Source: a plasmid. Taken from it: a DNA stretch of 64,000 nt. The notes beneath the pieces were generated by a model, which saw nothing but the letters and a program-made list of their open reading frames with translations, ran no database searches and had not been told where the DNA came from. Shown here piece after piece: positions 24,294-38,375 of the stretch (its first letter is position 1; each line of letters starts with the position of its first letter). Where the stretch lies: the NCBI RefSeq assembly GCF_056712565.1, contig NZ_JBWXXM010000003.1. One strand, written 5' to 3'. Both the position numbers and the translations under genes were made by a program.

Positions 24294-26495
24294 ATGATGA
24301 TAAGCAAAAAGTATACGCTTTGGGCTCTCAACCCACTGCTTCTTACCATGATGGCGCCAGCAGTCGCTCAACAAACCGATGATGAAACGTTCGTGGTGTC
24401 TGCCAACCGCAGCAATCGCACCGTAGCGGAGATGGCGCAAACCACCTGGGTTATCGAAAACGCCGAACTGGAACAGCAGATTCAGGGCGGCAAAGAGCTT
24501 AAAGACGCACTGGCTCAGCTGATCCCTGGCCTTGACGTCAGCAGCCGGAGCCGCACCAACTACGGTATGAATGTGCGTGGCCGCCCGCTGGTCGTGCTGG
24601 TTGACGGCGTGCGTCTCAACTCTTCACGTACCGACAGCCGACAACTGGACTCTATAGATCCTTTTAATATCGACCATATTGAAGTGATCTCCGGTGCGAC
24701 GTCCCTGTACGGCGGCGGCAGTACCGGTGGCCTGATCAACATCGTGACCAAAAAAGGCCAGCCGGAAACCATGATGGAGTTTGAGGCTGGCACCAAAAGT
24801 GGCTTTAGCAGCAGTAAAGATCACGATGAACGCATTGCCGGAGCTGTCTCCGGCGGAAATGAGCATATCTCCGGACGTCTTTCCGTGGCATATCAGAAAT
24901 TTGGCGGCTGGTTTGACGGTAACGGCGATGCCACCTTGCTTGATAACACCCAGACCGGCCTGCAGTACTCCGATCGGCTGGACATCATGGGAACTGGTAC
25001 GCTGAACATCGATGAATCCCGGCAGCTTCAGTTGATCACACAGTACTATAAAAGCCAGGGCGACGACGATTACGGGCTTAATCTCGGGAAAGGCTTCTCT
25101 GCCATCAGAGGGACCAGCACGCCATTCGTCAGTAACGGGCTGAATTCCGACCGTATTCCCGGCACTGAGCGGCATTTGATCAGCCTGCAGTACTCTGACA
25201 GCGCTTTTCTGGGACAGGAGCTGGTCGGTCAGGTTTACTACCGCGATGAGTCGTTGCGATTCTACCCGTTCCCGACGGTAAATGCGAACAAACAGGTGAC
25301 GGCTTTCTCTTCGTCACAGCAGGACACCGACCAGTACGGCATGAAACTGACTCTGAACAGCAAACCGATGGACGGCTGGCAAATCACCTGGGGGCTGGAT
25401 GCTGATCATGAGCGCTTTACCTCCAACCAGATGTTCTTCGACCTGGCTCAGGCAAGCGCTTCCGGAGGGCTGAACAACAAGAAGATTTACACCACCGGGC
25501 GCTATCCGTCGTATGACATCACCAACCTGGCGGCCTTCCTGCAATCAGGCTATGACATCAATAATCTCTTTACCCTCAACGGTGGCGTACGCTATCAGTA
25601 CACTGAAAACAAGATTGATGATTTCATCGGCTACGCGCAGCAACGGCAGATTGCCGCCGGGAAGGCTACATCCGCCGACGCCATTCCTGGCGGCTCAGTC
25701 GATTACGACAACTTCCTGTTCAACGCCGGTCTGCTGATGCACATCACCGAACGCCAGCAGGCATGGCTCAACTTCTCCCAGGGCGTGGAGCTGCCGGACC
25801 CGGGTAAATACTATGGTCGCGGCATCTATGGTGCTGCAGTGAACGGCCATCTTCCTCTAACAAAGAGTGTGAACGTCAGCGACAGCAAGCTGGAAGGCGT
25901 GAAAGTCGATTCTTATGAGCTGGGCTGGCGCTTTACTGGCAATAATCTGCGTACCCAAATCGCGGCCTACTATTCGATTTCTGATAAGAGCGTGGTGGCG
26001 AATAAAGATCTGACCATCAGCGTGGTGGACGACAAACGCCGTATTTACGGCGTGGAAGGTGCGGTGGACTACCTGATTCCTGATACTGACTGGAGTACCG
26101 GAGTGAACTTCAACGTGCTGAAAACTGAGTCGAAAGTGAACGGTACCTGGCAGAAATACGATGTGAAGACAGCAAGCCCATCAAAAGCGACAGCCTACAT
26201 TGGCTGGGCACCGGACCCGTGGAGTCTGCGCGTGCAGAGCACCACCTCCTTTGACGTGAGCGACGCGCAGGGCTACAAGGTCGATGGCTATACCACCGCG
26301 GATCTGCTCGGCAGTTATCAGCTTCCGGTGGGTACACTCAGCTTCAGCATTGAAAACCTCTTCGACCGTGACTACACCACTGTCTGGGGGCAGCGTGCAC
26401 CACTGTACTACAGCCCGGGTTACGGCCCAGCGTCACTGTACGACTACAAAGGCAGGGGCCGAACCTTTGGTCTGAACTACTCTGTGCTGTTCTGA
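24294..26495 (+). CDS. iutA: IutA, TonB-dependent ferric aerobactin receptor
   Basis: 733 aa with signal peptide, TonB box region, C-terminal ...NYSVLF typical of TonB-dependent receptors. Confidence 0.9.
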   Translation: MMISKKYTLWALNPLLLTMMAPAVAQQTDDETFVVSANRSNRTVAEMAQTTWVIENAELEQQIQGGKELKDALAQLIPGLDVSSRSRTNYGMNVRGRPLVVLVDGVRLNSSRTDSRQLDSIDPFNIDHIEVISGATSLYGGGSTGGLINIVTKKGQPETMMEFEAGTKSGFSSSKDHDERIAGAVSGGNEHISGRLSVAYQKFGGWFDGNGDATLLDNTQTGLQYSDRLDIMGTGTLNIDESRQLQLITQYYKSQGDDDYGLNLGKGFSAIRGTSTPFVSNGLNSDRIPGTERHLISLQYSDSAFLGQELVGQVYYRDESLRFYPFPTVNANKQVTAFSSSQQDTDQYGMKLTLNSKPMDGWQITWGLDADHERFTSNQMFFDLAQASASGGLNNKKIYTTGRYPSYDITNLAAFLQSGYDINNLFTLNGGVRYQYTENKIDDFIGYAQQRQIAAGKATSADAIPGGSVDYDNFLFNAGLLMHITERQQAWLNFSQGVELPDPGKYYGRGIYGAAVNGHLPLTKSVNVSDSKLEGVKVDSYELGWRFTGNNLRTQIAAYYSISDKSVVANKDLTISVVDDKRRIYGVEGAVDYLIPDTDWSTGVNFNVLKTESKVNGTWQKYDVKTASPSKATAYIGWAPDPWSLRVQSTTSFDVSDAQGYKVDGYTTADLLGSYQLPVGTLSFSIENLFDRDYTTVWGQRAPLYYSPGYGPASLYDYKGRGRTFGLNYSVLF

Positions 26496-26564
26496 CCGGT
26501 ATTCCTTTACAACAAAGGTACGCTGATATCAACATGGCCGCTGACAGCCAAGTTGATATCATAT

Positions 26565-26632
26565 AATACACGACATAATCTGTAGTCAGGGAGGATAGAC
26601 TCTTTACTGACTACAGATTATGTCGTGTTCCG
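26565..26632. repeat. palindrome downstream of iutA resembling the RepFIB iteron-proximal palindrome
   Basis: ACACGACATAATCTGTAGTCAGGGAGGATAGACTCTTTACTGACTACAGATTATGTCGTGT; compare 7738-7785 CTGTAGTCAGTAAAGGAGCGCTCTTCACTGACTACAG. Confidence 0.6.
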
Positions 26633-27019
26633 TGCTCATTTCCTCAAAAAATACAAGAAAAGAATTAGTATTCTAACAAAAAGTGAAATAAATTGTATCA
26701 AACTCCCTCTTTTAATCCTGTTGAGTAAATCAGCTTTTGCAATAGGATTGAAAGAGTGTAAGTGGAATCTCTTCCGGATACTCGTTACCACCGTGGCTAG
26801 AATATCTACGGCTGCGGGCCAGTAATAGATTAAGTGATAACAGCTGTCTGGAAATGTAGGGGCGTATCCACTAATCATAATCATTGTGAGATAAATATTA
26901 CGGGGCATTTTATAATGAATAAAATATACTCTCTAAAATATTGTCATATTACCAATACCATGAAGGTGATGCTGCCAACTTACTGATTTAGTGTATGATG
27001 GTGTTTTTGAGGTGCTCCA

Positions 27020-27295
27020 GTGGCTTCTGTTTCTATCAGCTGTCCCTCCTGTTCAGCTACTGACGGGGTGGTGCGTAACGGCAAAAGCACCGCCGGACAT
27101 CAGCGCTATCTCTGCTCTCACTGCCGTAAAACATGGCAACTGCAGTTCACTTACACCGCTTCTCAACCCGGTACGCACCAGAAAATCATTGATATGGCCA
27201 TGAATGGCGTTGGATGCCGGGTAACTGCCCGCATTATGGGCGTTGGCCTCAACACGATTTTACGTCACTTAAAAAACTCAGGCCGCAGTCGGTAA
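27020..27295 (+). CDS. insA: IS1 InsA
   Basis: 91 aa identical to copy 1 InsA. Confidence 0.95.
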
Positions 27296-27717
27296 CCTCG
27301 CGCATACAGCCGGGCAGTGATGTGATTGTCTGCGCTGAAATGGACGAACAGTGGGGCTATGTCGGGGCTAAATCGCGCCAGCGCTGGCTGTTTTACGCGT
27401 ATGACAGTCTCCGGAAGACGGTTGTTGCGCACGTATTCGGTGAACGCACTATGGCGACGCTGGGGCGTCTTATGAGCCTGCTGTCACCCTTTGACGTGGT
27501 GATATGGATGACGGATGGCTGGCCGCTGTATGAATCCCGCCTGAAGGGAAAGCTGCACGTAATCAGCAAGCGATATACGCAGCGAATTGAGCGGCATAAC
27601 CTGAATCTGAGGCAGCACCTGGCACGGCTGGGACGGAAGTCGCTGTCGTTCTCAAAATCGGTGGAGCTGCATGACAAAGTCATCGGGCATTATCTGAACA
27701 TAAAACACTATCAATAA
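27214..27717 (+). CDS. insB: IS1 InsB
   Basis: 167 aa identical to copy 1 InsB. Confidence 0.95.
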
Positions 27718-27727
27718 GTTGGAGTCA

Positions 27728-28402
27728 TTACCGTGCACGGTAACGGGCCATATCAATGAGCAGTTCCTCTCCAATTTTATTTGCCCCTAGAGAGCGGCGA
27801 GTTTTCTTCACTTCAATGACAATCTTCTCTTTCTTCAGAAGAAAATCCTGTCTGGATGATGAACCTGCGAAGCTAGGTGAATTTTCTTCAGGTCTGACAT
27901 CATTAAAATGCAGCAGCAGAAGAGCATGAACAAGATCCTGTACATCATACTCGTCATTAATTTCAAGCGGCGTTCTGTCATTGTATCGTTGCTTTAATTG
28001 ACGACAAAAAGCTGGAAATTTATTGAGTATATTTATAATCAAATCCAGTTCGGCATGTTTTGTTGCTATAGTCGATGCCGTGCCGGAGTAAGTTAAATCG
28101 TCTCTGGCTGCATCAAAAATAGGTTTGTAATGTCTAACCAATCCCTGATAATTACTAGACCAAGCAATCCTTTGTGTATCATTAAAATCTTTGTAGTAAT
28201 CAGATTCCTTTCCATAACTGTCTTCAAGTAACTTTTTTGCTCTTGCAATCCAGTTATTACCTTTAGCCGAATCAATATATTCCTGGCTTCTGTGACTAAA
28301 TGCACTTGTTCCCATATATTTTGTCGACATGACAGAATTGTACTCTTGTTCAAGCACTTCAAATCTTTCAGCTAAGGTCTTCTTCGTCATAGCGCAATCC
28401 AA
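27728..28402 (-). CDS. hypothetical protein with PD-(D/E)xK-like motif; C-terminus and stop codon supplied by IS1 end (probably 3'-truncated)
   Basis: 224 aa; C-terminal region ...LLLLHFNDVRPEE...(25 aa)...KIVIEVKK fits hhhD...hhhExK pattern; stop TAA lies inside IS1 terminal GGTAATGA. Confidence 0.5.
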   Translation of the reverse strand: MDCAMTKKTLAERFEVLEQEYNSVMSTKYMGTSAFSHRSQEYIDSAKGNNWIARAKKLLEDSYGKESDYYKDFNDTQRIAWSSNYQGLVRHYKPIFDAARDDLTYSGTASTIATKHAELDLIINILNKFPAFCRQLKQRYNDRTPLEINDEYDVQDLVHALLLLHFNDVRPEENSPSFAGSSSRQDFLLKKEKIVIEVKKTRRSLGANKIGEELLIDMARYRAR

Positions 28403-28559
28403 ATTATATGCTAATAATACCTGTGAATTTTAATATTCTACCATATCTGGCTTTCTTCCGTTCACATTGGACATTCAGGTAATTTCGTCCAGTTCTGCTG
28501 GCTGTGCTGGAGCTAGCCTGGTATAATTTAACCAGCCATTTCAACAGCGGTGGTGTCTT

Positions 28560-28754
28560 ATGAACGTCAAGAACATGTTTTACGGTGCCATTCTGGTAAG
28601 TGCTGTATGGGCGGTTATTTTGCTCTCATGGTTTGAATCCAGCCTTACCTTAAGCGATTACCTCAGGTACGAATCGGTAATCCTGATCCCATGCCTGCTG
28701 TGGGTTGCTGTTTATGGGTTAGGTAAACGTTACCTCCAAAGAACATCAAACTAG
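28560..28754 (+). CDS. hypothetical small membrane protein (64 aa, two predicted TM helices)
   Basis: MNVKNMFYGAILVSAVWAVILLSWFESSLTLSDYLRYESVILIPCLLWVAVYGLGKRY...; preceded by extended -10-like TGGTATAAT (~28521) and followed by hairpin TCCCTGGCT-CACCTGGAC-AGCCAGGGA. Confidence 0.4.
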   Translation: MNVKNMFYGAILVSAVWAVILLSWFESSLTLSDYLRYESVILIPCLLWVAVYGLGKRYLQRTSN

Positions 28755-28829
28755 CCGCGCCAGCGACTTTTTTTACACCTTCGTTTAATTCCCTGGCTCA
28801 CCTGGACAGCCAGGGAATTCTGCCCAGCG

Positions 28830-29309
28830 CTACTGGCTTGCTGTGCCAAACTTTCCGTTGCAGATTTCCTCATTCACAATGGCCTGAAACATGGAAACAG
28901 AATTTCTAGCCTTATCCCTCAGTGCATTAATGAGTTCTGTGTCGTGTATTTTGTTGTAGAAAATGAAAGTAGAAACATCAAACTGGAGTTTAAATGCTGC
29001 TTTCCTTATGGCTAAACCTGACGTGATCGTTATCTCATTATGTATGCGAAGATAGGCAAGATAATCATCGTTATTTGCTTCACACTGCTCATATAAATAT
29101 TTTTGCATGAGAGATTGAGACAAGGCCAGAAATTCCACATATCGTTTGGTTTTTATTTCTTTATCTTTTAATCCCTGTACTGCCGCTTCTTTTTTTAATT
29201 CGTGCTTTTGTGTTAGCTTAAGAGTCAGCCACCCCCCTAAAATAGTCAGCAACGACCCCAAACCTATTTTTACGGCATTATCAGCCACATCCACCCACTC
29301 AGTCGCCAT
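28830..29309 (-). CDS. hypothetical protein (159 aa) with N-terminal TM segment
   Basis: AT-rich ORF, N-terminal hydrophobic helix IGLGSLLTILGGWLTL; divergent from 29427-29876. Confidence 0.45.
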   Translation of the reverse strand: MATEWVDVADNAVKIGLGSLLTILGGWLTLKLTQKHELKKEAAVQGLKDKEIKTKRYVEFLALSQSLMQKYLYEQCEANNDDYLAYLRIHNEITITSGLAIRKAAFKLQFDVSTFIFYNKIHDTELINALRDKARNSVSMFQAIVNEEICNGKFGTASQ

Positions 29310-29426
29310 CTGTTACTCGTTCTTCCTGTGATGATCATGGTTGCCAGTATAATTCCAGCACAGACTGGACGTACAGCATTTTCTGTCCAGTAGACAGACT
29401 GTTACACTCAGGATAGGATAGCTTCT

Positions 29427-29876
29427 ATGGTTAAATTTCCAGGTGAAGTTATGAGTTCGTCCGCTGCTGTAACCGTTATAACTGGTGTTCTTGTTTTTGT
29501 TGGTGGTCAGCTCATTGTAAAGAGCGCGATTGAACCTTATATAGAATTCAAGAAACAATTGGGAAAAATATCAAATCTGCTATTAGCTAACCAAGCTAAA
29601 TTAGCTAATCCTTGTGCTGTTGAAATGTCTGAGATCATCCATGAGTTGAAAGATGCCGCAGCTCAGTTAATGTCGAAGCATTCAGCTTTGCCTTTCTATA
29701 TCAAAAAATTCCATATCGGATTCCGCTTTGTTCCATCAACGCCTGAAATTATTAGTTCGGCGCAAAAATTGAATTTGATAGCATCAATACATGAAGGTAA
29801 AAGCAAGGAAAGTACATATGAGCACATAGCCGAGATTGGACGTATGCTCAAAATCCCAACCACCTATTCTCTTTAA
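29427..29876 (+). CDS. hypothetical protein (149 aa) with N-terminal TM segment
   Basis: AT-rich ORF, hydrophobic VTVITGVLVFVGGQLIV; followed by hairpin plus T-tract terminator at ~29926-29957. Confidence 0.45.
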   Translation: MVKFPGEVMSSSAAVTVITGVLVFVGGQLIVKSAIEPYIEFKKQLGKISNLLLANQAKLANPCAVEMSEIIHELKDAAAQLMSKHSALPFYIKKFHIGFRFVPSTPEIISSAQKLNLIASIHEGKSKESTYEHIAEIGRMLKIPTTYSL

Positions 29877-30049
29877 TCTTCACGCCGATCAGATTACATA
29901 ATCCACGCGCCACCTGGACATTCAGGTAAAAAAGTCCAACTGGTGAGGTTGGGCTTTTTGGCTTTCCGGTTCTGTTGGTGGCTATGACCGGAGAAAATTG
30001 CTCTACACCTAACGCTTACATTTTATTTACAGCGTTTGATATCTTCCTC

Positions 30050-30094
30050 GCCTTTAACGCCTTTAACGCCTTTAACGCCTTTAACGCCTTTAAG
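30050..30094. repeat. 9-bp tandem repeat (GCCTTTAAC)x5
   Basis: GCCTTTAACGCCTTTAACGCCTTTAACGCCTTTAACGCCTTTAAG read directly. Confidence 0.9.
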
Positions 30095-30501
30095 GGGGGA
30101 AGATAGAGCAACTCACCGATGATGAATAAAGTGGACGAAGAGACGATAACTACACTCCCATCCAGGGGGGGGCTTTTTTTGTGGTACTGTAGTGTGGGAG
30201 TAAGTTCGGGTCTCATATTGAATGAGGCGATTGCGAGCTGCCTTTCATCGAAAACTAATGTCCATTGTCATTGTATTGTCTGACTCTATCTCGTAACAAG
30301 TCTTTGACACAAAGTTTTATATTTTTATCAAAGTGGACATGAGGGGAATTAAATTTGTGATCTTTTTCAAATAATGTGTTCTTGATAGTAGATTCTGGTT
30401 AGTGATATCTATTAACAATATATTAAATTTCTTTTGTATTATCGCTGATAAAACTACTGTATTGGTATACTATATATTATTGAGTAACAGGAGATATCAC
30501 T

Positions 30502-32004
30502 ATGAAGAAATTTTATCAATTTAGGGATGAACAGCGAAAGGAGCTTGAACAACATGATTTTTATAGTTTGATTTCTTCAGATTGTATAGCGTTGAAAGAT
30601 AAACTATTATTTGCTCCTGTTATGGCTCATTTCATAATGAACTTCAGAGACATGAATAAATGGGTTATCAGGTTTGATAACAATGATAATGAATATAAAT
30701 CTGTTATAAACGGTGGAACAATCGAGGATGAAACACATTCAAGATTGTTTCTGGAAGACTGGAGGAAACTATATATAGATGACAAACTTAACTGGAAAGC
30801 AAGTGATGTTATATACTGGTTGTTTATTAGTCGAGAAATGGAGTGTTTCCGAAAATTTGGTATTGATTTTATGAGACTTTGTGTAGATGATGGAGGAGAC
30901 CCAATACTTCGATATTCTCACTCCGAGTCAGGAGAAACTTGCGGTAATATATTCTTTTCAAGAATTAGTCCTATTGCTGATCAAGTTGCCAATCATTTGG
31001 GAATATCACTCCGTTATTTTGGAACATTTCACCTTAATCTTGAAAATGGACATGTATGGAAGTCAGAAGGTGTTTTTGAAAATATAGAGTTGTCACCAGA
31101 TTCTTATAAGAAAATGGCTACTCTATCAAAGAGAATGTTTGATATATTTGAAGGAATTCATGACTCTTTTTATAATTACCTGTCCAGTTATGTTCTTAAT
31201 GGAAGTCATCCGTCATTTTTTGAATCATTACCTGTAGGGAAAAATGTTGCACCTATATACCCTGAATTTGTGATAGAAAACAAAAGCCATAACGATGGTA
31301 GACATATTGAACATATAAACAATTACCTGGAAAAAATATCGAGTCATGAGTTCTTTAAATGGCTGGTTAACACCTCAATAGACCCTCAATTGAAATTGAA
31401 AAGTTTCATACCTCTTTGGATTGTTGATATTATGGGGTATAGAGATATTAATAAATATGTTTTTACATATGAACAGCCTGAATCAGAAAGTGAAAAGATT
31501 ATAAATGATTATGCATTACACTTGTCAGAGCATAGCCGTTTATTTTATCATGACTGGAAGTCACTTCAACTTGATGATATGTTACGTTGGAGTGCCAGTG
31601 ATACTCTTGAGTTTATTTTTCTTAATTCAGATATGGATATGCATAGAGAAAATATAGTTAAGTTTTCTTTGTTCGGATTAAAACACAGAGATCCTGTTAT
31701 CAGGTTCTGGTTTATGATGATACTGGAGTTAAGTGGAAAAGAATTTTTCTCTCATGTTGGAGATATAGCTTTACAGGTGGAAAGTAAATATAATATTTAT
31801 CTCCCATATTTATGTGGACGCCATGCAACAGAAAATGAGCATGAAGCATATAATAATATGTATGAGCATTTTATGGTAAAGGAACTTAGCCCTGAACAAA
31901 GTGATCTAATAATACAAATTACAGACATGGTTATGCGGTCATTATTGAATAATTTGGATATCTCATATCGATATGTAGTAAATAATTTATTGGCAGCTCG
32001 TTAG
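30502..32004 (+). CDS. hypothetical 500-aa protein with internal duplication, AT-rich
   Basis: ATG at 30502 with AGGAG RBS; internal repeats HSRLFLEDWRKLYIDDKLNWKASDVIYWLFISREMECF and HSRLFYHDWKSLQLDDMLRWSASDTLEFIFLNSDMDMH; terminator hairpin AAATCCCACTT-TTCA-GAGTGGGATTTGTTT at ~32040-32070. Confidence 0.6.
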   Translation: MKKFYQFRDEQRKELEQHDFYSLISSDCIALKDKLLFAPVMAHFIMNFRDMNKWVIRFDNNDNEYKSVINGGTIEDETHSRLFLEDWRKLYIDDKLNWKASDVIYWLFISREMECFRKFGIDFMRLCVDDGGDPILRYSHSESGETCGNIFFSRISPIADQVANHLGISLRYFGTFHLNLENGHVWKSEGVFENIELSPDSYKKMATLSKRMFDIFEGIHDSFYNYLSSYVLNGSHPSFFESLPVGKNVAPIYPEFVIENKSHNDGRHIEHINNYLEKISSHEFFKWLVNTSIDPQLKLKSFIPLWIVDIMGYRDINKYVFTYEQPESESEKIINDYALHLSEHSRLFYHDWKSLQLDDMLRWSASDTLEFIFLNSDMDMHRENIVKFSLFGLKHRDPVIRFWFMMILELSGKEFFSHVGDIALQVESKYNIYLPYLCGRHATENEHEAYNNMYEHFMVKELSPEQSDLIIQITDMVMRSLLNNLDISYRYVVNNLLAAR

Positions 32005-32789
32005 AAGAACAGCATTGGTATGACTCTGATGCTCCTTAAAATCCCACTTTTCAGAGTGGGATTTGTTTAATGCCCAGAACAGGGGGAATTTCCATTCATG
32101 CCCAAAAAATATTTTGATGTCCTCTCGCCAATTCTCGCGCTCAGTCCTTCCTGAAAAACCTCAGAATTCACGTAGCGCATCGCCGCTACTGCATCCATCA
32201 AAAAAAATGACAGCTTTTTTAATCATCTTGTGTTACTCAACTTACTGAAAAATGTGATTTATGAAAATGCCGCCGTCGGCATCAAGCAGTTGGCCAGCGC
32301 AACCGGCTGCATCGACCGCAACAAAAAAACTGAAAGAGAAAGCCCCTCAAATGAGGGAGAAAAAAAGGAAGTGCAGTCAACGAGAGGCGTAAAAAACCCG
32401 ACTGGTGAGGTCGGGTTTTAATACGGTTCCGGTTCTGAGTTGGTGGCTCTGACCGGAGGAAGTCACTCTACACCTAACGTTTACATTTTATGCACTCAGC
32501 CGCAGTATTGCAACTAACTGTGGTTAAGGCACCACATTTAGTTGTGTATCGTGGGTTTTATATACCTTATAATCATGAAGTTAGCCGTGTGGTGTGGCTT
32601 CTTCCTCTGCCCTTCCCGTTTATGCAGGTATGAACGATTTTAAAGTCCTGGCTGAACAAACAGGTGGTGCTGTGTTTAGTGCTCTGGCAGGAGGAAGTCA
32701 CTCTGCACCTAACAATGCGAGAGAACCGTTGTGACAGGCAGTGTAAGAGCAAGCAACGGTGATTTCCTCCAGTTTTACTGGAGAAACGG

Positions 32790-32885
32790 ATGATTAATCT
32801 GTTAATCATCGTTCTCAGGGCTGTGGTCGCCGTTGCAAACGCGCTGATTGCAATTCTGGAACTGATTCGCCAGTTCATCGACTGA
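32790..32885 (+). CDS. putative small hydrophobic toxin peptide (31 aa), DinQ/TisB-like, copy 1
   Basis: MINLLIIVLRAVVAVANALIAILELIRQFID; GGAG RBS; start codon inside perfect inverted repeat GATGATTAA-TCTG-TTAATCATC; coordinates approximate. Confidence 0.45.
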   Translation: MINLLIIVLRAVVAVANALIAILELIRQFID

Positions 32886-33707
32886 TGACAGCGGAAACGT
32901 AACTAAGGACAGGAAGTGAACCGCTTCCTGCCCTTTAACGTACTGTGATATTTTTCAAAAAAACTCACCAATATTCTCCTCGGCAGAAATGACATAACTC
33001 ACTGTAAAATAACAAATCATCTAAACGCCAGCTTTGTATTGAGCGCGTTGGCCAACGCCTTTATCAGCTGCGACCGCACCAGATAATTTGAATAAGATTT
33101 CCCGCATCACCTGGACATACAGGTTATTCTGTCCATACCTCATTAGTTACAACATTCACGCGTTCTGTTCCTTTATCCGGTGCCCTGTTCCAGTATATGT
33201 GCCCATATCCTGGGTTATTCAGGATAACCGCTTCCTTTTCGCCCTGTCCTGTCGTTCATATCCCCCTGGACAAAAATGCATTATCGGAAAAAATGTCCAA
33301 AATTTTTTTGGTGATCGGAATTTTTGTTGTCGGACGCACCTCTTCTTCAGGTCATAATTGCTGACACATCCCAAAAAACAGGAGCGGAGATTTAAAAATT
33401 GAGTCACTTACCCGCCAAAATTTTCCAGATTTCACGTAGCGTACCGTCGATACTGTATCCATCAACAAATGACTATTTTTTGAATGTGTCATTTCCTGTA
33501 ACCTACTGAAAAATATCAGTGAATGACAATATCGGCGACAGCATCGGAGCTGATAGCCAGTTTCCTGAATGCATATGGCCAGAACAGTAAATTTGAACCA
33601 GGTTCTCACGTCACCAGGCGACGTGTCTGGGAAACTGGTGAACAACAGGCACAGAAAAGCCCAACTTTATGGGGGTCAGTTCAGTGAGGTTGGGCTAAGA
33701 GAAACGA

Positions 33708-33803
33708 ATGATTAACCTGTTAATCATCATTCTCAGGGATGTGGTCGCCGTTGCAAACGCGCGGATTGCAGTTCTGGAACTGATTCGCCAGTTCATCGTT
33801 TGA
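33708..33803 (+). CDS. putative small hydrophobic toxin peptide (31 aa), DinQ/TisB-like, copy 2
   Basis: MINLLIIILRDVVAVANARIAVLELIRQFIV; same start-codon inverted repeat ATGATTAA-CCTG-TTAATCAT; coordinates approximate. Confidence 0.4.
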   Translation: MINLLIIILRDVVAVANARIAVLELIRQFIV

Positions 33804-34028
33804 TGACAGCGGAAACGTAACTCAGGACAGGAAGTTCCAAATAGCTCCCAGCCAGCATATGTAATTTTCAAAGGGGCAGTTGTTAACTCTGTAATAACGC
33901 CATGTAAAGTATTCCTGCCCCCTCCATGATCCTCCATAGTATTTCTTGAGTTAATTTTCAAAAAGCTTCTGATGGTGATGCTGCCAACTTACTGATTTAG
34001 TGTATGATGGTGTTTTTGAGGTGCTCCA

Positions 34029-34304
34029 GTGGCTTCTGTTTCTATCAGCTGTCCCTCCTGTTCAGCTACTGACGGGGTGGTGCGTAACGACAAAAGCACC
34101 ACCGGACATCAGCGCTATCTCTGCTCTCACTGCCGTAAAACATGGCAACTGCAGTTCACTTACACCGCTTCTCAACCCGGTACGCACCAGAAAATCATTG
34201 ATATGGCCATGAATGGCGTTGGATGCCGGGCAACTGCCCGCATTATGGGCGTTGGCCTCAACACGATTTTACGTCACTTAAAAAACTCAGGCCGCAGTCG
34301 GTAA
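34029..34304 (+). CDS. insA: IS1 InsA
   Basis: 91 aa. Confidence 0.95.
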
Positions 34305-34726
34305 CCTCGCGCATACAGCCGGGCAGTGACGTCATCGTCTGCGCGGAAATGGACGAACAGTGGGGCTATGTCGGGGCTAAATCGCGCCAGCGCTGGCTGT
34401 TTTACGCGTATGACAGTCTCCGGAAGACGGTTGTTGCGCACGTATTCGGTGAACGCACTATGGCGACGCTGGGGCGTCTTATGAGCCTGCTGTCACCCTT
34501 TGACGTGGTGATATGGATGACGGATGGCTGGCCGCTGTATGAATCCCGCCTGAAGGGAAAGCTGCACGTAATCAGCAAGCGATATACGCAGCGAATTGAG
34601 CGGCATAACCTGAATCTGAGGCAGCACCTGGCACGGCTGGGACGGAAGTCGCTGTCGTTTTCAAAATCGGTGGAGCTGCATGACAAAGTCATCGGGCATT
34701 ATCTGAACATAAAACACTATCAATAA
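34223..34726 (+). CDS. insB: IS1 InsB
   Basis: 167 aa. Confidence 0.95.
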
Positions 34727-34929
34727 GTTGGAGTCATTACCGCCTTGACCATCAGATAGTTATTTTGGTGCTAGGGATACTGAGTGTGAACAGTTAGCGC
34801 GCGTCCTCGCCAGTTAGCTCGCTACGCTCGGTTACACGACGGCTACGAGTACTAGTGATAATTATTGACTGAGGTATGTGCTCTTCCTGTTTCCTTTTTT
34901 GATGTGTTGCTCTCATTTTAAACAACTTT

Positions 34930-35016
34930 GCGGTTTTTTGACTACTTTGCAATTTTGTTGTTGCTTTGCAATAAAATGCAAGATTAAATGAAAATATGCA
35001 AAGCAATGATTAAAGG
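34930..35016. promoter_or_regulatory. sopAB promoter/operator region
   Basis: Repeated TTTGCAA/TTGCAA motifs (CTTTGCAATTTTGTTGTTGCTTTGCAATAAAATGCAAG...ATGCAAAGCAATG) immediately upstream of sopA. Confidence 0.55.
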
Positions 35017-37242: not shown

Positions 37243-37760
37243 TGAATATTATATCTGGGACCACGGTCCCAGTTGTATTGTCGGTCTGATAATCAGTCTG
37301 GGACCACGGTCCCACTCATATTGTCGGTCTGATAATCAGTCTGGGACCACGGTCCCACTCATATTGTCGGTCTGATTATCGGTCTGGGACCACGGGCCCA
37401 CTCATATTGTTAGTCTGCTAATCAGTCTGGGACCGCGGTCCCACTCGTATTGTTGGTCTGCTAATCAGTCTGGGACCACGGTCCCACTCATATTGTCGGT
37501 CTGCTAATCAGTCTGGGACCACGGTCCCACTCATATTGTCGGTCTGCTAATCAGTCTGGGACCACGGTCCCACTCATATTGTCGGTCTGCTAATCAGTCT
37601 GGGACCACGGTCCCACTCATATTGTTGGTCTGATTATCGGTCTGGGACCACGGTCCCACTCATATTGTTAGTCTGATAATCAGTCTGGGACCGCGGTCCC
37701 ACTCGTATTGTTGGTCTGCTAATCAGTCTGGGACCACGGTCTCACTTGTATTGTCGATCT
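37243..37760. repeat. sopC: sopC centromere, ~12 tandem 43-bp repeats
   Basis: Repeating CTGGGACCACGGTCCCACTCATATTGTCGGTCTGATAATCAGT units, each with inverted repeat GGGACCACGGTCCC. Confidence 0.95.
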
Positions 37761-38375
37761 GATTATCAGCGTGAGACTACGATTCCATTAATGCCTGCCA
37801 GTGAGTGTGTGGAACATATCTTGGCCAGTGGCTTGGTCTGTGATGTGCTGCGTATACCGGGTGAACCGCCCCGCCGCTTGTTTGACCGCTATATTCTGCG
37901 GGAGTTTTCTTGGAGGCACGGGATGAAATCCGCAGCATGGCGGATGCCCTGGCAAAAATCCGGAAATGATGACGATGGCGGGGAAAATCCCCGCCTTTTT
38001 CCTGCCGGTCCCCGGACAGAGCACAAAGGAAGTCGCCGCCGGCTCCGCTTTACCCGGCCATGCGGAGCATGGCCTTGTGGGGGTTCAGTTATGTGGACGT
38101 CGAGTCGTGTGCGGGCTGTGCCGTGCCTCCATCTTAGCCGGGCTGGCGTTGATGCAAGCAACTGTCTTAATGGGAGGCGGTTATCTGAAAAAAGTACGGG
38201 ATAATATTATGGAATCGCCCATCTCAAGCAAAAAACTGACTCGCTTCGATACTACGCTGACAGGCTGTTTTGAGCGAGATATCTCTCGTGTCGGGCATCG
38301 ACATTTTAAATGATTCTAAATAATATGAGCAGGGTCAGTCTTATTAAAGATTAAAACACCGGATAACAAGTTTTA

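Follow-up and report, generated by a model that had tools for sequence, protein, structure and literature searches.

We analyzed a 64,000-nucleotide stretch of plasmid DNA, called the window here, that carries a short tandem repeat within a segment bracketed by two direct copies of IS1 (26961-27728 and 33970-34737). The window comes from a ColV/ColBM-type IncFIB virulence plasmid of Escherichia coli. It carries iutA at 24294-26495 and is nearly identical to pECOS88, pAPEC-O1-ColBM, pVM01, and many other plasmids. Beyond the segment are twelve 43-bp tandem repeats (37254-37769; 92% matches), which we interpret as sopC, the centromere of the F-type SopAB partition system; in pECOS88, the annotation places sopA beside the second IS1. 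Between the two IS1 copies we found a gene with a restriction endonuclease (REase) domain, several small ORFs, an AgrB-family small RNA (sRNA) gene that we call AgrB-A, a gene for a 500-amino-acid (aa) protein, a second AgrB-family gene that we call AgrB-B, and two dqlB toxin genes. IncX1 and IncX4 plasmids also carry the module made up of AgrB-A, the array, the 500-aa gene, AgrB-B, and dqlB. The two bracketing IS1 copies suggest that this IncX-like segment is a composite IS1 unit acquired from an IncX plasmid.

Two other features of the segment lie to the left of AgrB-A or are scattered between its genes. The 224-aa ORF at 27728-28402 (minus strand) contains a restriction endonuclease domain of the DpnII/MboI type (Pfam PF18742, E value of 1.6e-33) and gave PADLOC "Aga_Helical-REase" matches; it is possibly a defense-related gene. 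A palindrome, TGGAC-N14-GTCCA (…CACCTGGACAnnCAGGT…GTCCA), occurs in four copies, at 28468-28491, 28803-28826, 29915-29938, and 33112-33135. These copies sit between the small gene cassettes of the segment, and one of them overlaps the AgrB-A terminator.

AgrB-A (29926-30012, minus strand) was identified as an AgrB-family antisense sRNA gene with Rfam model RF02891 and by alignment with agrA and agrB of E. coli K-12. Its score was 46.0 bits, above the gathering score of 40, and the match covered the full length of the model (model positions 1-84). The initial annotation had listed this stretch as "conserved element copy A" but had missed its identity as an AgrB antisense sRNA gene. We found the same AgrB-A copy in the IncX1 and IncX4 loci. 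AgrB-B (32389-32477, minus strand) scored 64 bits with Rfam, has an intact TTGCAA-17-TAAAAT promoter, and is the cognate antitoxin sRNA. Judged by its sequence, AgrB-A is a diverged paralogue of the AgrB-B antitoxin.

Downstream of AgrB-B lie the two dqlB genes, which encode DinQ-like type I toxins (32790-32885 and 33708-33803). Two published studies describe agrB-dqlB as an experimentally validated plasmid addiction module, in which about 35 nt of the dqlB 5' untranslated region (UTR) is paired by the AgrB sRNA (PMC12365149, PMC12317039). In the window, the first copy, dqlB-1 (plus strand), has an AgrB target in its 5' UTR at 32669-32713, followed by the toxin ORF at 32790-32885; this assignment draws on duplex prediction, the pECOS88 annotation, and the sequence. 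The 5' part of AgrB-B is predicted to pair with 32669-32713 at -65.1 kcal/mol. AgrB-A is predicted to form an interrupted duplex with the same target at -46.8 kcal/mol, and background sites score about -41. In a duplex search of the window, the dqlB-1 5' UTR was the best target of AgrB-A, and no further good one emerged. This pair of a strong and a weak pairing partner, AgrB-B and AgrB-A, mirrors agrB and agrA of the K-12 dinQ-agrA-agrB locus. In K-12, agrB matches dinQ at 30 of 31 positions and agrA at 25 of 31, and toxicity is counteracted by agrB only (PMC3567139).

The similarity of the second dqlB (33708-33803) to dqlB-1 starts only about 9 nt before the ATG. Its 5' region contains no AgrB target, and a hairpin, AGCCCAAC…GTTGGGCT, lies directly before it (33659-33697). 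This second dqlB is perhaps silent or under a different kind of control. On the IncX1 plasmid p573-5, a third AgrB-family copy (positions 2754-2841 of that locus, L002) lies just to the left of AgrB-A, so that three AgrB genes surround one dqlB next to a single-unit form of the repeat.

Upstream of AgrB-A, we found an array of five perfect head-to-tail units of CGCCTTTAA at 30049-30093, which on the minus strand reads (TTAAAGGCG)x5. Tandem Repeats Finder reported the same interval with a period of 9, 5.0 copies, 100% matches, and a score of 90, with CGCCTTTAA as the unit. All five occurrences of the 9-mer in the 64-kb window lie within the array; 0.5 would be expected by chance, and none of 100 shuffled sequences reached five. 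The initial annotation had described a perfect fivefold 9-bp repeat at 30050-30094. The repeat itself is confirmed, but its phase had been set one base too far to the right: read as GCCTTTAAC from 30050, there are four perfect units, and the fifth (30086-30094) is GCCTTTAAG, which ends in G and thus has a terminal mismatch.

The layout of 30040-30105 is TATCTTCC-T-(CGCCTTTAA)x5-GGGGGGAAGATA. A real 8-bp inverted repeat brackets the array, with TATCTTCC at 30040-30047 as the left arm and GGAAGATA at 30098-30105 as the right arm. When the inverted repeat and array were folded as DNA, the arms paired, and the resulting hairpin was not clearly better than those of shuffled sequences (z of -0.7 and -1.84 for the window and -2.35 for the single-unit allele). 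We therefore do not claim the array and its inverted repeat as a structural element. A G6 homopolymer at 30094-30099 touches the array and varies in length, with 6 G's in IncF, 7 in IncX4, and 9 in IncX1 plasmids. A search of 26500-35000 with Rfam at a permissive E value returned just the AgrB-A and AgrB-B copies plus a subthreshold STnc410 match, and nothing at the array. Inspection by eye of the array units and nearby hexamers revealed no promoter at a usable spacing, and a generic promoter scan returned one minus-strand candidate (30299-30270), where 2.1 are expected by chance. The repeat sequence was not found in the collection of papers searched, and a broader keyword search returned nothing relevant. 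In addition, CTTCCTCGCCTTTAACG (30043-30059) matches CTTCCTGCCCTTTAACG (about 32917-32933, after the dqlB-1 terminator) at 15/17 positions. This match is too short to support a claim and was spotted post hoc.

Two ORFs cross the array, one at 29975-30106 (plus strand), which reads AFNAFN, and one at 30016-30216 (minus strand), which reads KALKAL. A 9-bp unit keeps the reading frame, so the repeat could in principle encode a repetitive peptide, (AFN)n or (KAL)n, and some NCBI records include the plus-strand ORF as an automatically annotated gene. Both ORFs, however, cross homopolymers whose length depends on the plasmid: the G run is 6, 7, or 9 long, and a second tract reads GGGATG, GGGGTG, or G6 to G9. 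Neither ORF therefore has a conserved frame or end. In addition, the plus-strand ORF begins with TTG inside the AgrB-A gene and lacks a ribosome-binding site, and the ORFs gave no family match. We consider it extremely improbable that the repeat is translated, and we regard both ORFs as artifacts, as the initial annotation had judged most likely for the minus-strand one.

To the right of the array, the sequence consists of pieces of other plasmid backbones. Positions 30105-30165 (plus strand) match the 3' end of an IncX1 backbone ORF of 87 aa that lies downstream of hha-hns and has the C terminus …KEQLTDDEKEWAKRR*, and they continue a few bases past its stop codon. As blastn, annotation, alignment, and translation indicate, the copy in the window is a frameshifted remnant (…EQLTDDE…), in which a 1-nt deletion leads to an early stop. 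A weak terminator-like site at 30155-30180 (plus strand) follows this remnant. The hairpin and T run noted initially are present here as G8 (30165-30172), C, and T7 (30174-30180), but the terminator scan scored the site as weak, with a stem of just 5 bp (CTCCC/GGGGG) before the T7. In other plasmids, the G tract before the T7 is GGGATG, GGGGTG, or G6 to G9, and part of the homopolymer differences at 30094-30099 and 30165-30180 may be sequencing error. A second IncX backbone remnant follows at 30180-30296, which blastn matched to the 3' region of an IncX1 hypothetical gene and to IncX3 SprT-like genes. No similarity to the dqlB locus that might indicate a hidden toxin between AgrB-A and the 500-aa gene was found beyond 30026.

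The 500-aa gene (30502-32004, plus strand) was characterized from its ORF, by alignment with Escherichia fergusonii homologues, and by its similarity to AetD. Residues 1 to 231 match AetD, a heme-oxygenase-like diiron nitrile synthase (PDB 8ji2, E value of 8e-18). By eye, the C-terminal half contains the same motifs again, and the protein would then be a tandem double domain. Homologues with 43% identity are found on Piscirickettsia salmonis plasmids. Searches with Pfam, NCBIfam, and PADLOC gave no match for the 149-aa, 159-aa, and 500-aa proteins.

The 500-aa gene has the array on its upstream side, and IncF, IncX1, and IncX4 carriers are nearly identical over the entire 490-bp interval. Both facts would fit the proposal of the initial annotation that the array is a phase-variable spacer or a protein-binding array controlling this gene. 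We found several results that contradict it. The array and the ATG are separated by 408 bp, which contain a gene remnant, the terminator-like site, and another remnant. The E. fergusonii plasmid homologues, whose products are 87 to 88% identical in aa sequence, have only the proximal sequence of about 160 bp before the ATG in common with the window, from about 30345; neither the array nor an AgrB copy is present at their loci. One plasmid sub-lineage tolerates an IS1 that puts a further 777 bp between the array and the gene. Finally, the near-identity of the interval reflects recent spread and not constraint, since the flanks of the array contain no single-nucleotide polymorphisms (SNPs) among the plasmids compared below. 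By its sequence, 30013-30345 is a patchwork of remnants and not a control region common to the homologues of the 500-aa gene, and a role for the array in controlling that gene is very unlikely.

The candidate functional neighbor of the array is on its other side. We aligned AgrB-A, AgrB-B, the third copy from the IncX1 plasmid, and K-12 agrA and agrB, and we placed the AgrB-A start by alignment with the mapped starts of K-12 agrA and agrB (PMC3567139). The sRNA body is common to all five genes. AgrB-A has a -10 hexamer, TAAAAT, at 30020-30025 (minus strand), 7 nt before the start. The same hexamer is found in AgrB-B, and its geometry is that of TAGTAT in K-12 agrB. AgrB-B, K-12 agrA, and K-12 agrB all have a -35 TTGCAA at 17-nt spacing, whereas the corresponding position of AgrB-A (30043-30048) reads AGGAAG. 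Similarity between AgrB-A and AgrB-B ends at 30026, directly upstream of the -10 hexamer. The array begins one base past the -35 position and spans -37 to -81 of AgrB-A. The generic promoter scan made no call at the AgrB-A promoter. This promoter is the only candidate functional neighbor of the array, and given that the -35 box is absent, an effect of the array there is conceivable.

We next compared the array across related plasmids, as the initial annotation had proposed. Among 15 sequenced loci that we read directly, the number of perfect units ranged from 1 to 9. IncX1 p573-5 has 1 unit; IncX4 plasmids have 2, 4, or 5; and IncF plasmids have 2, 3, 4, 5, 6, 7, 8, or 9. The head-to-tail units were perfect in 14 of the 15 loci, the exception being pETN48, which has a single-base variant. 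Searching PLSDB with a 161-bp query returned 238 plasmids, whose identity bands fit numerous alleles that differ from five units by one or two, and in a 60-row sample of these matches the spans corresponded to 2 to 8 units. Among complete RefSeq E. coli genomes, 231 of 5,426 (about 4%) carry the repeat segment. In a 60-row sample from this set, 1 unit was found in 2 rows, 2 units in 2, 3 units in 13, 4 units in 13, 5 units in 12, 6 units in 8, 7 units in 4, 8 units in 1, and 9 units in 1; among the remaining 4 rows, 3 had arrays interrupted by IS1, with 5 units to the left of it, and 1 was a partial match missing the array. The distribution is unimodal, with 3 to 5 units the commonest; these copy numbers come from consensus assemblies and are not mutation rates. 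The initial prediction of a slippage-prone copy number was thus borne out, with the same spread in the directly read loci, in PLSDB, and in the E. coli genomes.

These differences are found among very close relatives. Eight IncF plasmids with 2, 3, 4, 5, 6, 7, 8, and 9 units, which differ by whole-unit steps, had no SNPs in 671 bp of flanking sequence. The copy number of the array therefore changes much more rapidly than point substitutions accumulate. Within a single study, plasmids of identical size had identical spans, which argues that the span differences are not assembly noise. We concluded that the array is a genuine variable-number tandem repeat (VNTR) with a hypervariable copy number.

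In one IncF sub-lineage (loci L006, L007, and L008), an IS1 has inserted within the array itself, giving …TAACGCCTT|IS1|TAACGCCTT-TAAGGGGGG. The target duplication is 9 bp, and TAACGCCTT is one permuted repeat unit. Such interrupted arrays make up about 8% of the carriers in the spread sample and are common in databases. In the lineage marked by this IS1, either 5 or 7 units make up the left sub-array, and three alleles are indicated by spans of 1437, 1446, and 1456; the presence of several alleles indicates that slippage went on after the insertion.

The length of the repeat unit coincides with that of the IS1 duplication. IS1 makes 9-bp target duplications, and it is normally lost by slippage between the duplicates, which restores a single copy. 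With IS1 copies flanking the segment and an IS1 duplication in one sub-lineage that is itself a permuted unit, one could imagine that the first duplication of the 9-mer was the footprint of a lost IS1 and that slippage did the rest. We regard this origin as quite unlikely. Normal loss of IS1 would have restored a single copy, and the insertion that is actually seen lies in a register other than that of CGCCTTTAA and needs at least 2 pre-existing units. Ordinary microhomology-independent duplication is a sufficient source of the first copy.

We favor the explanation that the array is a slippage-driven VNTR that persists as a neutral by-product and has no required function, and we give it a probability of about 60%. 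According to this model, a copy of the AgrB sRNA gene cut upstream of its -10 hexamer would have been joined to decayed IncX backbone, and CGCCTTTAA would have been duplicated at the joint. In a run of perfect head-to-tail units, replication slippage could then gain and lose whole 9-bp units, and nothing around the array would depend on its length. The homogeneity of the array is what would be expected under continual slippage, as in other bacterial VNTRs. The 8-bp inverted repeat may aid this process by drawing the ends of the array together. We infer neutrality from the variation that is tolerated: array lengths of 9 to 81 bp are found, an IS1 insertion is tolerated, and the surroundings are remnants. 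If the array had any effect, it would probably be graded and exerted on the sequence upstream of the weak AgrB-A promoter rather than on the 500-aa gene. Three results fit this model less well. The array directly adjoins the -35 position of an sRNA promoter without a -35 box, where upstream sequence can matter; the AgrB-A body scores above the Rfam gathering threshold, so the neighboring gene may be functional; and the unimodal distribution around 3 to 5 units is also compatible with weak selection.

A different hypothesis is that the array tunes the AgrB-A promoter, which keeps only a -10 hexamer. The TTAAA-containing units at -37 to -81 could act as UP-like contacts for the alpha subunit of RNA polymerase, or the array could set the distance or helical phase of more distal upstream sequences. 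Slippage would then generate sub-populations that differ in how much of a second antitoxin-like sRNA they make and hence in the strength of post-segregational killing by dqlB. Consistently with this, the array starts exactly at -37 of the alignment-inferred start, where the TTGCAA of AgrB-B and of K-12 agrA and agrB is missing, AgrB-A is still predicted to pair with the dqlB-1 5' UTR, and agrB-dqlB is a validated addiction module. However, the promoter-proximal unit stays in place whatever the copy number, which makes alleles with at least 3 units identical out to about -65. The units are also just 5/9 A+T, unlike the UP consensus, and an IS1 within the array is tolerated. Finally, AgrB-A pairs clearly worse than AgrB-B, as does K-12 AgrA, which counteracts no toxicity. 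We consider it possible, though not likely, that the array tunes this promoter. The stronger proposal, that the VNTR is a contingency-type rheostat of the toxin-antitoxin system working through the AgrB-A promoter without its -35 box, is doubtful.

In being contiguous, identical short units in plasmid intergenic DNA, the array also resembles the heptads bound by omega repressors and the iterons bound by ParR. It could accordingly be an operator with contiguous sites for a plasmid DNA-binding protein. Iteron and heptad operators have a linked gene for the binding protein and a conserved array; here, we found neither. The array has no consistently linked gene for replication, for partition, or for a small DNA-binding protein, the left neighbors differ among IncX1, IncX4, and IncF carriers, and Pfam, NCBIfam, and PADLOC gave no DNA-binding match for the ORFs adjoining it. 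The copy number varies from 1 to 9 without constraint, with a single unit in IncX1, and the 9-mer is present nowhere else in the window. An operator of this type is thus highly unlikely.

Like the VNTRs and contingency loci of other bacteria, the array consists of perfect short head-to-tail units whose number differs between otherwise identical relatives. Classic contingency repeats lie within a reading frame and have a unit that is not a multiple of 3, or they lie in the spacer between -35 and -10, and they switch expression in on/off steps. In contrast, the array described here has a 9-bp unit, lies outside any conserved ORF, and is located upstream of the -35 position, at -37 to -81, with no evident switch. 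It is an ordinary kind of feature, a plasmid VNTR.

The locus around the array shares its AgrB-family sRNA (RF02891) with K-12 dinQ-agrA-agrB and with the plasmid agrB-dqlB loci of pOXA-48 and the IncX3 plasmid pOXA-484. As in K-12, a DinQ-like toxin gene is accompanied by two AgrB paralogues whose transcription runs away from it. Unlike in K-12, the sRNA genes are 2.4 kb apart with the 500-aa gene between them, and the distal copy has no -35 box and a VNTR upstream instead. We found no tandem repeat upstream of the AgrB promoters in the K-12 locus, at AgrB-B, or at the third copy of p573-5, and the available portions of the agrB-dqlB literature mention none.

These results correct the annotation of this segment: what was listed as a "conserved element" is a gene for a second AgrB antitoxin-like sRNA, and the short ORFs that RefSeq places across the repeat are artifacts. 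The array would represent a new route for tuning a plasmid addiction system only if its copy number alters AgrB-A expression. If that were the case, levels of a second antitoxin sRNA would vary heritably and reversibly, and dqlB killing of plasmid-free segregants would be diversified on both ColV virulence plasmids and IncX plasmids. As a marker, the array is clean, easily scored, and fast evolving, and it could separate otherwise identical plasmids in outbreak and transmission studies. Its carriers include the ColV/ColBM virulence plasmids of avian and neonatal-meningitis strains as well as IncX plasmids.
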